Notes: generated by a model from the sequence alone, not told the origin. Shown: positions 26,886-29,955, counted from the first letter of the stretch. The stretch: DNA of 64,000 bases from Alphaproteobacteria bacterium (GCA_045638265.1 JAZUBA010000077.1:4655-68654), one strand, 5' to 3'. Program-made: numbers and translations.

Positions 26886-28088
26886 TTAATCTCTAATAAA
26901 TAAATTTCTTAAACGTGAAATGAACGAAATATTTGAATTGTGTTGTTTTATCTGCTCAGCTGGTTTTTTACAAAACTCTTGAAGCATTGATTTTGGTGTT
27001 TCATCAGGTCGTTTTGTCATATCTTGAATATGTTGTTTTGTGTAATTAACAATTTCTTTTTCGGTATCTGATAAATTTTGTCCTGTAATTGATTTGTCAA
27101 GATAGGCTTTTGCTTCAATTAACAATTGTTGAAAATATTGTATGCGTTGCATGGAATCTACTTTATTTTTCAGTTGAGCCATTGCAAAGGATTTAAAATT
27201 ATTTAAACTAATTTGTTCCCGATTATTTATTTCGTTTGACAAATAATTGCAACAAAACGCATTCATTTCTGTTTGTTCATATTTTCCGTTATATGTCCCT
27301 GAATTATCAAAACGAATACCGGATAAAATACCTTTTTTAGAAATTAAAATACCGTTTTGTTCGTCAGCCACCCATGTTAGAGGTTCTACTTTTACCCAAT
27401 ACGATTTTTTGTTTTTAATTATCCGATCAGATGCTTCTAAATGAATTTTATGTTTGGTTTCATCACTGTTTTGAGCTAATGTCGCAACAACTTGTACATA
27501 TTTTTCCCCTTCAAATTCATATTCTTTTAAAGAGCTAAAACATTGCGTTCGGGTATCTTTTGAATAAGGACACATTTCAAGTGTGTTAATCGTATATGTA
27601 TGACCTGTTTCAGTCAGTTGATTACGTGCCAAAGCACGAGATAATTGAGCGGATGTTTTTATATCAGCAAGACTTTGCGGATAACTGCCGACTTGTACTA
27701 TTGGGATACTTGTGTTGGGTTCAACAACAACCTCGCCGATAATTTTATAATCTCTTTCCTTTTTTGCTTCATCCAAACTAATAACAGGTAAAATACAAGC
27801 TTCCCGTGAATTTGCCCACATGGCTTTGTTTCTATCTGAAATATCCATAACAACATCGTAATTTTGAAACCCGAAATCATATTCAATACGACGTTCACAA
27901 GAAGATTTTGTCCAGACCAAATCAGCACATTGTTTATTATTAGATGAATTGGAATCTAATTTTACTCCTGTTAAAACAGCAAAATCTGTTGCTTGTATTG
28001 CATAGACACTATCAATTTGGGGATGAGCAAGAACTTTAAGGGCATTTGATAATAGAATATCGTTTTTTTCAAGTAATGTTATTTTCAT
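26886..28088 (-). CDS. Orphan hypothetical protein, tandem paralog 1
   Basis: 400 aa; collinear with the 28181..29374 gene (MKITLLEKNDI.../MMKVTLLDKSDI..., shared ...YVQVVA..., ...YWVKVEPL..., ...ISLNNFKSFAMAQLKNKVDSMQR...). Confidence 0.55.
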   Translation of the reverse strand: MKITLLEKNDILLSNALKVLAHPQIDSVYAIQATDFAVLTGVKLDSNSSNNKQCADLVWTKSSCERRIEYDFGFQNYDVVMDISDRNKAMWANSREACILPVISLDEAKKERDYKIIGEVVVEPNTSIPIVQVGSYPQSLADIKTSAQLSRALARNQLTETGHTYTINTLEMCPYSKDTRTQCFSSLKEYEFEGEKYVQVVATLAQNSDETKHKIHLEASDRIIKNKKSYWVKVEPLTWVADEQNGILISKKGILSGIRFDNSGTYNGKYEQTEMNAFCCNYLSNEINNREQISLNNFKSFAMAQLKNKVDSMQRIQYFQQLLIEAKAYLDKSITGQNLSDTEKEIVNYTKQHIQDMTKRPDETPKSMLQEFCKKPAEQIKQHNSNISFISRLRNLFIRD

Positions 28089-28115
28089 AAAAAAACTCCA
28101 TAAGTATTTTTTTTT

Positions 28116-28143
28116 ATTATACCAAAATTTTTACAAAAATCAA
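28116..28143 (-). promoter_or_regulatory. Sigma70-type promoter (TTGATT-16-TATAAT) for paralog 1; the same promoter block is duplicated upstream of paralog 2 (~29405-29435)
   Basis: On the minus strand: TTGATT (28138-28143), a 16-nt spacer, TATAAT (28116-28121). The core atttttacaaaaatcaacttttt recurs at 29411-29433. Confidence 0.45.
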
Positions 28144-28180
28144 CTTTTTATACTGTATAAACAATAGATTAAAATAAAAA

Positions 28181-29374
28181 TTAATTTCTTGAAAAAAGGT
28201 GTTTAAACCAGAGGAATCCTGAAATATTATTGTTTTTGACTTTATCTTCATCTTGTTTTTGACAGAATTGATTAAGCATTTCTTGAGGCAGAATATTTGG
28301 TTGTGCTATCATATTTTGAATATGTTGCTTTGTGTATTGAACAATTTCTTTTTCAGTAGAAGACAATGTTCCATCTGTAATTGATTTACCGAGATATGAT
28401 TTTGTTGTTTGGATAAGTTTTTGAAAATATTCAACTCTTTGCATGGAATCTACTTTGTTTTTCAGTTGAGCCATTGCAAAGGATTTAAAATTATTCAAAC
28501 TGATTTGTCCCCGACTGGTAATTTCATTTGACAGATATGTATCACAAAATGCTTTCATTTCTGTTTGAGAAAAATCACCGTTATATTCAGTTGTATGATT
28601 AAAACGAATGCCGGATAAAATGGCTTTATTGGAAATTAAAATCTCTTTTTCTTCATCTACCATCCATATTAATGGTTCTACTTTAACCCAATACGGTTTT
28701 TTGTTTTTAACATAACGACAAGGAACATCTAAATGAACGCTTTCCCGTGTTTCACTTATAAGTTGAGATAATGATGCTACAACCTGAACATATTTATTTC
28801 CTTCAAATTCATATTCTTTTAGGGTAATATATGTTTGAGGTCTTGTATCGTTTCCTTTCGACAACATCGGCAAACCATTAATGGTATAAGTTTTTCCAGT
28901 TTCAGTGAGTTTATTTCGTTTTAAAGCTCGTGTTAATTTAGCAGAGGTTTCTATATCTGCCAAACTTTGAGGATAAGAACCAACTTTGGCTAATTTAACG
29001 ATACCATTTCCGATCGGAACTGTATTAATAATTTCAAAATCTTTTTCTTTTTCGGCTTCGTTTAAGTTAATAACGGGAACAATGCAGGCATCACGTGAAT
29101 CGGGACTGATATTATTTTTTGTTGAAATATCCATAACTAAATCTAAATTTTCGTTATTGTAAATGTATTTGCATTTTGATTTTGTCCAAACAAATTGGGC
29201 ATATTGACGTTGGTGATTGTTGTTTTCTAAATATTTATCTAAAAAAGCTCCTGTTAAAACGGCAAAATCACTTGCCTGTACGGCATAAGGTTGTAATGTA
29301 TCTTGTTGAACAAGAAGTGCAAGTGTGGATGATGAGTTAATGTCTGATTTATCTAATAATGTAACTTTCATCAA
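28181..29374 (-). CDS. Orphan hypothetical protein, tandem paralog 2
   Basis: 397 aa; paralogous to 26886..28088 along its whole length. Confidence 0.55.
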   Translation of the reverse strand: MMKVTLLDKSDINSSSTLALLVQQDTLQPYAVQASDFAVLTGAFLDKYLENNNHQRQYAQFVWTKSKCKYIYNNENLDLVMDISTKNNISPDSRDACIVPVINLNEAEKEKDFEIINTVPIGNGIVKLAKVGSYPQSLADIETSAKLTRALKRNKLTETGKTYTINGLPMLSKGNDTRPQTYITLKEYEFEGNKYVQVVASLSQLISETRESVHLDVPCRYVKNKKPYWVKVEPLIWMVDEEKEILISNKAILSGIRFNHTTEYNGDFSQTEMKAFCDTYLSNEITSRGQISLNNFKSFAMAQLKNKVDSMQRVEYFQKLIQTTKSYLGKSITDGTLSSTEKEIVQYTKQHIQNMIAQPNILPQEMLNQFCQKQDEDKVKNNNISGFLWFKHLFSRN

Positions 29375-29496
29375 AAAAACTCCGTAAAATAAATTTTATA
29401 TATTATACAGAAAATTTTTACAAAAATCAACTTTTTATATAAAAACCGGATTAAAACATTTGTTTTAACCCGATAATATAGAAAATGTATTCAAGT

Positions 29497-29955
29497 TTAA
29501 TCTGTTTTAACATTTGTATCTGCAACGGATTGAATCAATGCTAAAATATTATTTCTGATTTTAGAATCATTAATCCGAACAAAAGCGTTGATTAATTCGC
29601 GAATATTTTGTTGCATTTCATAAGGTTGTTGCAGAATACCAAAATCATCGGACGAATCACATAAGCAATCGTTTGCAAAAATAGAAAAATCAATACCACG
29701 ACCACTTAATGTCCGTTCAATTCCATCAAAAAAATAGCTGACAGGTGTATTGAGGGTGCGGGCTAAATGCCAGATGCGACTGCCAGAAATACGATTACTG
29801 CCTTTTTCGTATTTTTGTAATTGTTGAAAGGATATGTTTAATGTTTGTGCTAATTGATTTTGACTTAATCCAATCAAATTTCGGCGTAATCTTATTCGTG
29901 AACCGATATATTCATCAATAGCGTTTAATGTTTCGTCTGATATTGTGTTTTCCAT
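29497..29955 (-). CDS. XRE-family HTH transcription regulator
   Basis: RLRRNLIGLSQNQLAQTLNISFQQLQKYEKGSNRISGSRIWHLARTLNTPVSYFF is a classic Cro/C1-type HTH. Confidence 0.7.
   Translation of the reverse strand: MENTISDETLNAIDEYIGSRIRLRRNLIGLSQNQLAQTLNISFQQLQKYEKGSNRISGSRIWHLARTLNTPVSYFFDGIERTLSGRGIDFSIFANDCLCDSSDDFGILQQPYEMQQNIRELINAFVRINDSKIRNNILALIQSVADTNVKTD

Follow-up and report, generated by a model that had tools for sequence, protein, structure and literature searches.

Introduction

Recombination-diversified paralog families are known from host-associated bacteria, for example Anaplasma msp2/p44 and Neisseria pilE/pilS. Diversity-generating retroelements (DGRs) act on another class of variable proteins, those with a lectin fold, for example Bordetella phage Mtd and Treponema TvpA. 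Here we analyse a locus that can be compared with both: a tandem pair of paralogous genes in a 64,000-nt stretch of DNA from an Alphaproteobacteria bacterium (GCA_045638265.1, JAZUBA010000077.1:4655-68654), which we call the window and number from its first letter. The window is AT-rich (GC ~34%), and the pair lies on its minus strand, next to an XRE-family helix-turn-helix (HTH) gene. A first-pass annotation, made from the sequence alone, had described the pair as a tandem duplication of an orphan gene. The reading we favour, with moderate confidence, is that the two products are non-enzymatic ligand-binding proteins on a permuted DUF6273-type scaffold, diversified by recombination, with no retroelement in the window.

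DUF6273 has been described as a C-type-lectin-like, DGR-diversified receptor-binding domain whose variable region can sit on a beta-hairpin (PMC10743442). It forms the N-terminal domain of the phage 'tentaclins' and of ThomasA, the IgA protease of Thomasclavelia ramosa, and the sequence relationship of DUF6273 to the family described below is weak, yet consistent. Two differences stand out. The window family has the parts of the domain in permuted order, with ~124 extra residues (105-228 in the downstream paralog), and the DUF6273 proteins known so far are for the most part secreted, anchored in the cell wall or part of phage tails, whereas those of the window have no signal peptide and end in a helical tail. 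A further group of described systems comes from multicellular bacteria, in which DGR-diversified lectin sensor domains are fused to NTPases (PMC10907252; PMC7159879) and have been put forward as putative antigen sensors (PMC10907252).

The tandem gene pair

Copy 1, the downstream paralog (26886..28088, minus strand, 400 aa), was delimited by its open reading frame (ORF), BLASTP and an AlphaFold2 (AF2) model. Copy 2, the upstream paralog (28181..29371, minus strand), was delimited by its ORF, and its ATG at 29371 is a likelier start than the TTG at 29374, giving a 396-aa product identical to the database protein P0004. The two products align end to end with 57% identity and 73% positives (BLASTP, E = 2e-157), which bears out the proposal in the first-pass annotation that they are full-length paralogs. 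An assembly artefact, which that annotation had named as a possible refutation, is excluded because the DNA of the copies is only ~68% identical and the tandem pair turns up again in three independent metagenome assemblies (L002, L005 and L006). The duplication is therefore real, and it is old.

Copy number in relatives had been suggested as a check and was found to depend on the genome. There are two copies in the window, L002, L005 and L006, a single copy in L004 and none in the more distant L009-L013.

Relationship to DUF6273

Single-sequence searches of Pfam, NCBIfam, PHROGs, PADLOC and the PDB gave no match for the window proteins. A hemopexin-like short motif, returned by a profile search against the PDB (E about 1e-3), was judged spurious. 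The residues conserved across the family (D35, G41, Y136-P137-Q138, L149, W231, P236 and W239 in copy 1 numbering) are mostly aromatic, glycine or proline with a few acidic ones, and no recognisable catalytic set is found among them. The earlier remark that the proteins have no recognisable catalytic motifs thus stands.

The term 'orphan', in contrast, had to be given up. Weaker matches such as P0005 and P0006 have only the first ~290 residues in common with the window proteins, and profile searches found relatives of this part in their thousands, so the N-terminal domain is widespread. One profile returned 1,821 clusters (50% identity) at E <= 1e-3, 429 of them at E <= 1e-30, and a second returned at least 2,871 proteins at E <= 1e-10, none of them named and none with a Pfam domain. 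Copy 1 matches the A2 family profile over the full ~290 residues (E = 9.7e-80). The domain occurs as standalone proteins of ~270-330 aa, as tandem repeats (P0007, P0010 and P0066) and in fusions to AAA_5-like ATPases, ankyrin repeats, DUF4116 repeats or pentapeptide repeats. Five loci offer a clue to their origin, and all of them point to Firmicutes (L001, with a YabG spore protease gene; L003; L008, with GerQ; and L014-L015, with SpaA-type pilin genes). A scan of genome contigs found only one distant Firmicutes homolog, L003.

The claim that the family is lineage-specific survives for the full-length architecture and fails for the first ~290 residues. Among 5.8 billion proteins, the full-length architecture was found in four lineages only, all within one narrow alphaproteobacterial clade: the window copy 1 type, copy 2, the copy 1 allele of L002 and the single copy of L004. 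The C-terminal ~110 residues are specific to this clade.

DUF6273 is the one curated family to which a tie was found, and the tie comes from family members in which the domain is repeated. Weak DUF6273 matches were found in 5 of 107 family members (best E = 3.9e-5). In P0010, which consists of units 1-269 and 278-587, the match covers 214-375 (26.3 bits) and so runs across the unit junction, and in P0066 (units 274-541 and 542-810) it covers 500-626. The N-terminal half of the DUF6273 model aligns to the end of one unit (its last ~60 residues) and the C-terminal half to the start of the next (its first ~100). Because the match straddles the junctions, DUF6273 corresponds to copy 1 residues ~229-290 followed by 1-104. 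Judged by these alignments, a single unit is a circular permutant of DUF6273 (PF19789) with an additional beta segment of ~124 residues (105-228). Read by eye, the likeness extends to W-x-[ST]-x-S, [AV]-[RL]-P-[AV]-L and Y-P-Q motifs and to an 'EP-x-x-W-L-x-D ... L-x-S' strand.

Remote-homology searches and structure prediction had been proposed as checks; the former gave the DUF6273 link and the latter a confident AF2 model. A model of copy 1 built from 6 sequences was too poor (pLDDT 54), so we used one built from a 107-sequence alignment (pLDDT 87, pTM 0.81). It has an N-terminal beta-rich domain (residues 1-290) followed by a C-terminal bundle of five helices (291-400). Comparison of the model with solved lectin-fold targets gave no clear fold match.

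Hypermutated relatives in Firmicutes

One branch of the family belongs to a DGR. The cassette at L014:7926-13960, present also in L015 and L016, is complete and has an unusual layout. It opens with an Avd-like ORF, whose match to NF033474 (E = 1.9e-5) is below the cut-off; next come a template repeat of 100 nt (TR; L014 8581-8680), a reverse transcriptase (RT) of 339 aa in which the LGNQSSQ and YMDD motifs mark it as a DGR enzyme, and the target gene. Downstream of the target are an ORF of 130 aa and a gene of the DUF2201 VWA/metallopeptidase-like type. L001 has the same arrangement up to its contig end. The target, a 642-aa protein that joins the family domain to an AAA_5-like ATPase, has its variable region (VR) at codons 72-105. 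Eleven of the 12 TR/VR mismatches fall at TR adenines, though A makes up only 28 of the 100 template bases. Among 91 natural variants of the target, Shannon entropy averages 0.80 bit in residues 72-105 and 0.04 elsewhere, with peaks at TR codons that have A in position 1 or 2. Because variation is confined to the VR in this way, we conclude that the DGR is active in nature; its target is also highly abundant in metagenomes.

These homologs are thus genuine DGR targets in the manner of Mtd and TvpA, with an RT of the [I/L]GxxxSQ type, an Avd-like ORF, adenine-specific TR/VR differences and hypervariability. The VR of the relatives ends in a conserved G-A-V-R-P motif, which we take to resemble the G-F-R end of variable regions in lectin-fold targets. 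Unlike that of most DGR variable proteins, it lies near the N-terminus. Such N-terminal variable regions are rare, with three cases in one survey, and AAA/midasin-type targets were reported there only for unclassified variable regions (PMC5758913). For both reasons the Firmicutes system is noteworthy in itself.

The window is different from Mtd- and TvpA-type systems in that it has no RT, no TR and no focused variability. Searched by tblastn against the 64 kb, the L014 RT matched nothing significantly (the best hit, of 28 aa, had E = 0.034). The window also yielded no TR-like repeat, the sole repeats of 26800-29500 being those between the two copies. A DGR in the window was therefore rejected.

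The relatives nevertheless show where the binding face of the scaffold may lie. The equivalent of the DGR variable region was placed at copy 1 residues 62-104 (27777..27905, minus strand) using hmmalign, AF2 secondary structure and the entropy of the 91 variants, and at copy 2 residues 65-102 (29066..29179, minus strand) using hmmalign. In copy 1 it comprises a beta-hairpin (63-81) and a loop leading to an 'ILPV' motif, which matches 'VRPAL' in the relatives. Because the DGR rewrites ~15 surface positions there in Firmicutes, this face of copy 1 would, by analogy, be the ligand-binding surface, and the proteins may bind a variable ligand from a host, a competitor or an invader. Family-wide, the Arg of the 'IRPxL' motif is near-invariant, and it is Leu or Val in all alphaproteobacterial members (copy 1 residue 100 and copy 2 residue 98, at ~27789 and ~29078). 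The same 'IRPxL' motif closes the DGR variable region in the Firmicutes relatives.

The composition of the 642-aa Firmicutes proteins suggests another role for the window proteins. Like the NTPase-fused DGR sensors, they join a recognition domain that is hypermutated to a P-loop ATPase, and they have a VWA-type partner gene, although the ATPase is AAA_5/MoxR-like with an N-terminal recognition domain, not a STAND NTPase with a C-terminal lectin domain. The window proteins could then be intracellular sensors of a conflict or defence system, in which the domain recognises an invader molecule and the helical tail passes the signal to a partner. The parallel is with the putative antigen sensors of PMC10907252, and the turnover of alleles between strains that we describe below is typical of defence loci. 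We nevertheless regard this role as improbable. The pair has no ATPase, nuclease or other effector gene beside it and no VWA-type partner, its flanks are housekeeping genes and not a defence island, and PADLOC matched neither the window proteins nor five relatives. No family member was found in phage and plasmid collections (tblastn) or among viral contigs (two scans of IMG/VR; 2.9 million contigs), which is neutral on defence as such but leaves the pair with no arms-race partner.

Two predicted promoters for two copies

The first-pass annotation had reported that ~90-bp upstream regions with TTGATT-16/17-TATAAT promoters were duplicated along with the genes. This was confirmed: the ~86 nt upstream of the two copies align at 81% identity (72/89 columns), with a local alignment score of 86 against 23.6 +/- 4.2 (maximum 44) in 500 shuffles, and they include an exact 29-nt repeat (29411-29439 = 28124-28152). 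The copy 1 block (28089..28174, minus strand) contains TTGATT-16-(TG)TATAAT at 28143..28116, in which the TG is an extended -10 element, and a GGAG Shine-Dalgarno sequence 7 nt before the ATG. The copy 2 block (29373..29456, minus strand) contains TTGATT-17-TATAAT at 29430..29402, then a GGAG Shine-Dalgarno sequence.

Both TTGATT/TATAAT sites are the top sigma-70 matches in 26300-30300, each agreeing at 10/12 positions. Promoter-like sites are not enriched in this AT-rich interval (15 found, 21.7 expected), so the case for these promoters rests on their position and conservation and not on the consensus match. The block is kept before every copy in four other assemblies. With a strong predicted promoter and a ribosome-binding site of its own, each copy is probably expressed constitutively and independently of the XRE gene upstream.

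Allele replacement and gene conversion

Strain L002 is ~98% identical to the window but differs sharply from it in one tract. Sliding identity, boundary alignment and per-gene synonymous divergence (dS) delimit an allele-replacement tract of ~1.7 kb (26430..28134), within which identity is 60-74%, while the flanks are 92-100% identical. It spans the spacer of the copy 1 promoter, copy 1 itself, the intergenic region and the last ~370 nt of a convergent ankyrin-repeat gene. The left boundary is inside the duplicated promoter block, directly after TTGATTTTT, and the right boundary fades out within those last ~370 nt. Between the window and L002, dS is 0.96 for copy 1 and 0.02-0.18 for the flanking genes. 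At the protein level, copy 1 is 98% identical to the allele of L005 and L006 but only 61% identical to the L002 allele at the same position. Copy 2, on the other hand, is 95-98% identical among strains and 97% identical to that of L002.

A second, smaller event is found within copy 2. Positions 28439..28495 (minus strand) have copy 1 27147..27203 as their donor: the two segments differ at 1 of 57 nt in the window and at 14 of 57 in L002. From these counts, the 57-nt tract is a short gene conversion between the paralogs. A conversion tract is also present in L005, where it is longer.

In a neighbour-joining tree, the alphaproteobacterial proteins form one clade (100% bootstrap) of four deep, nearly star-like lineages. 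Within this clade, copy 1 of the window is joined to the L004 protein, from a more distant genome (75% bootstrap), and not to the L002 allele at the same position. Window copy 1 and the L004 protein are 63% identical, with dS about 1. A scan of JGI metagenomes for further alphaproteobacterial alleles found none.

The ratio of nonsynonymous to synonymous substitution (dN/dS, by the NG86 method) had been proposed as a check. Between lineages it is 0.26-0.40, at a dS of about 1 and thus near saturation, and within alleles it is 0.16-0.48. The paralogs are under purifying selection. Constraint on the housekeeping neighbours is stronger (0.04-0.11). Gene-wide positive selection was rejected, because dN/dS is below 0.5 everywhere. 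The suggestion that the pair is under diversification is supported, but the locus diversifies by allele replacement and gene conversion and not by positive selection on substitutions.

In this the pair resembles msp2/p44 and pilE/pilS, which also vary by the exchange of whole alleles and short segments and not by point mutation. It differs from them in having two expressed copies only, with no silent cassette archive, and in that its events are seen between strains and not within a population, and its products are not known to be exposed on the cell surface.

Weighing the proposed history

The following history would connect these results. A narrow alphaproteobacterial clade may have acquired the ~290-aa beta-rich recognition domain by horizontal transfer, probably from Firmicutes, and the acquired gene would then have gained its clade-specific helical bundle of ~110 aa and been duplicated together with the promoter/leader cassette. 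The downstream copy is swapped as a whole allele, through one crossover in the repeated promoter cassette and another in the 3' end of the ankyrin gene, and conversion of short tracts takes place between the two copies. Variation at this locus arises by recombination and not by hypermutation. We infer that the transfer ran in the direction given and that the variation of copy 1 is selected.

Several observations weigh against our favoured reading. Neither window protein matches DUF6273 even at E <= 1 (Pfam gathering threshold 23.5 bits). All Firmicutes subgroups lie at the same distance from the alphaproteobacterial clade (25-32% identity), with the DGR targets not specifically close to it, and most of the standalone Firmicutes members we checked have no RT nearby. 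An origin of the clade as an offshoot of the DGR-target subfamily was rejected on the same distances. Within the alphaproteobacterial clade, variability is not higher in the VR-equivalent than elsewhere in the protein (Fisher p = 0.39-0.86 in 5 of 6 comparisons). Divergence is instead even along these proteins, as simple fast drift would also produce, and the dN/dS of ~0.3 is similar to that of the XRE gene, the 919-aa ankyrin gene (Ank919) and a 218-aa gene, all weakly constrained. Finally, only two copy 1 allele types are known, from a handful of strains.

The last three of these points are what would be expected of a fast-drifting accessory family, in which the duplication is old and neutral and the divergent copy 1 allele was imported by chance, through homologous recombination from a sister species. 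The distance between window copy 1 and L004 also fits ordinary orthologous divergence. We consider drift rather unlikely, because several features of the locus speak against it. In every assembly the ORFs of both copies are intact and keep all family-conserved residues, and each copy retains its conserved strong promoter. The tract of recombination has a sharp edge at the promoter cassette, and two strains carry independent short conversion tracts of different lengths. The scaffold is, moreover, demonstrably a target of programmed diversification elsewhere.

A tandem pair of paralogs of an uncharacterised gene is ordinary. What is new, to our knowledge, is the definition of the family, its permutation relative to DUF6273, an N-terminal DGR target fused to an AAA-type ATPase, and a DGR-less, recombination-diversified alphaproteobacterial offshoot; none of these is represented in Pfam, NCBIfam or PHROGs. 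A large family without a model in those collections thus gains an identity, as a relative of DUF6273 in circularly permuted form. In one abundant Firmicutes branch it is hypermutated as the target of an active DGR, with a rare N-terminal VR and an AAA-type ATPase fusion, and the positions rewritten there map a putative binding face onto copy 1 62-104. The family also provides a natural comparison, since a retroelement diversifies the scaffold in one phylum, and duplication, allele replacement and gene conversion do so in another. If recombination is the correct explanation, the duplicated promoter block has a second function as an anchor for recombination, a point open to direct testing in metagenomes.

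Role of the XRE gene

The XRE-family HTH gene reported just upstream of the pair is confirmed (29497..29955, minus strand, 152 aa; Pfam HTH_3, E = 9.6e-13). A functional link between it and the pair, however, found no backing. Its orthologs occur at 47-64% identity in metagenome-assembled genomes (MAGs) labelled 'Alphaproteobacteria bacterium', in the same lysS / tRNA-U5-methyltransferase / XRE block. Because this block is kept in relatives without the paralogs, synteny explains the adjacency. In those MAGs the XRE gene is followed either by a convergent ATP synthase operon or by a Stealth-family gene and a tRNA synthetase gene, and because different genes follow it in different relatives, the paralogs must have been inserted where synteny breaks off, 3' of an XRE gene that was already there. 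A more distant relative has a tRNA-like sequence immediately 3' of the XRE gene (L012:7529-7780), which fits a variable insertion site.

Between the XRE gene and copy 2 there is a terminator-like hairpin followed by a T-run (29445..29474, minus strand), which would split the two into separate transcription units. No conserved operator-like element is common to the XRE upstream region and the promoter blocks. The XRE gene is therefore probably a bystander, as far as can be read from the DNA.

At 29990-30045, upstream of the XRE gene, there is a perfect inverted repeat, TTTTACATAT-AATC-ATATGTAAAA (N4 spacer), with the methyltransferase gene on one side and the XRE promoter on the other. L002 has kept this repeat, and it is absent in L004, L009 and L012. 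It might terminate transcription of the upstream gene or serve the XRE gene as an autoregulatory operator. All that it has in common with the promoter blocks is the 7-mer TGTAAAA. This was rejected as evidence of an operator, because the 7-mer turns up 37 times across the window and the blocks of L002, L004 and L005 do not conserve it.

The first-pass annotation had offered a toxin-immunity-like pair as one interpretation, and a toxin-immunity or toxin-antitoxin-like pair under XRE control has some points in its favour: the XRE HTH gene is directly upstream, XRE proteins are often antitoxins or repressors of such modules, and this one has weak similarity to antitoxin-type HTH models (in PADLOC it matches generic HTH models only). 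The evidence contradicts such a pair, and we consider it highly improbable. The two products are homologs over their full length with a single fold, L004 has one copy only, and no toxin, antitoxin or immunity domain was detected; to this must be added the XRE gene's place in the same block in genomes without the paralogs, and the hairpin that separates it from copy 2.

Ankyrin-repeat neighbours

Copy 1 converges with a plus-strand gene (24051..26810) for a 919-aa ankyrin-repeat protein with one C-terminal membrane-spanning segment, and the 3' end of this gene is inside the replaced tract. The membrane-spanning segment and tail of the ankyrin protein (26430-26810) were thus exchanged together with copy 1, which may be due to no more than linkage or may reflect a functional pairing.

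At least four ankyrin-repeat genes are present in the 64 kb (13841-15472, 15491-16930, 24051-26810 and 43135-44007), as are large ORFs without a Pfam match (39712-43047, 7145-9478 and 57803-59527). Together, these gene types suggest a host-associated lifestyle.

In such a setting, the paralogs might be translocated effectors, exported by a non-Sec route (e.g., a type IV system) to bind a molecule of a eukaryotic host, with the diversity of copy 1 reflecting host adaptation or immune evasion. The abundance of ankyrin genes, one of them convergent with copy 1 and in its recombination tract, is in keeping with this, as are the lack of a signal peptide, the clade-specific architecture, the divergent copy 1 alleles and the fusion of the domain to ankyrin repeats in some relatives (e.g., P0066). 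Still, the window yielded neither a secretion system nor a secretion signal, most of the family is found in Firmicutes, apparently cytoplasmic and in ordinary chromosomal contexts, and host association itself is deduced only from the ankyrin genes and the low GC. We therefore consider effectors unlikely.

Our favoured reading, of ligand-binding proteins diversified by recombination, can be taken a step further in a scenario that we offer only tentatively. A host-associated alphaproteobacterium would have captured a DGR-type scaffold and switched its diversification to a cassette system, in which tandem paralogs are expressed independently, the promoter block serves as a portable crossover site, and exchange of entire alleles as well as short segments takes place both inside a genome and across genomes. 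This would provide a variable repertoire of proteins that bind ligands or the host, and these might vary in step with the membrane-anchored tail of the ankyrin protein. As candidate interaction proteins of an uncultured, ankyrin-rich, low-GC alphaproteobacterium, the paralogs are worth expressing as baits.

A probable prophage or mobile-element remnant and other genes

The region 49500-57500 is a probable small prophage or mobile-element remnant, on either side of which the GC dips to ~0.25 (at 48-49 kb and at 57-58 kb). Among its products are a cell-wall hydrolase similar to SleB (50090-50611), a tail-fibre-like protein in which GNxSVAGLN is repeated (50978-52039) and a Zot/terminase-like protein with a P-loop (54890-55570). 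Two further ORFs are HTH/replication-like (56710-57039) and XRE-like (57175-57462), the latter being a second XRE-like ORF of the window.

A 323-aa ORF at 37296-38267, in a stretch with a GC of 0.28, has a weak Pfam match to Tad4, a Thoeris inhibitor (E = 2.4e-6, 28.2 bits). A tRNA-Arg(CCT) gene (33137-33213) is followed by a truncated HPr kinase / EIIA-Man / NPr cluster (33221-34400). This cluster is of the alphaproteobacterial type, and its presence supports the assignment of the window to that class.

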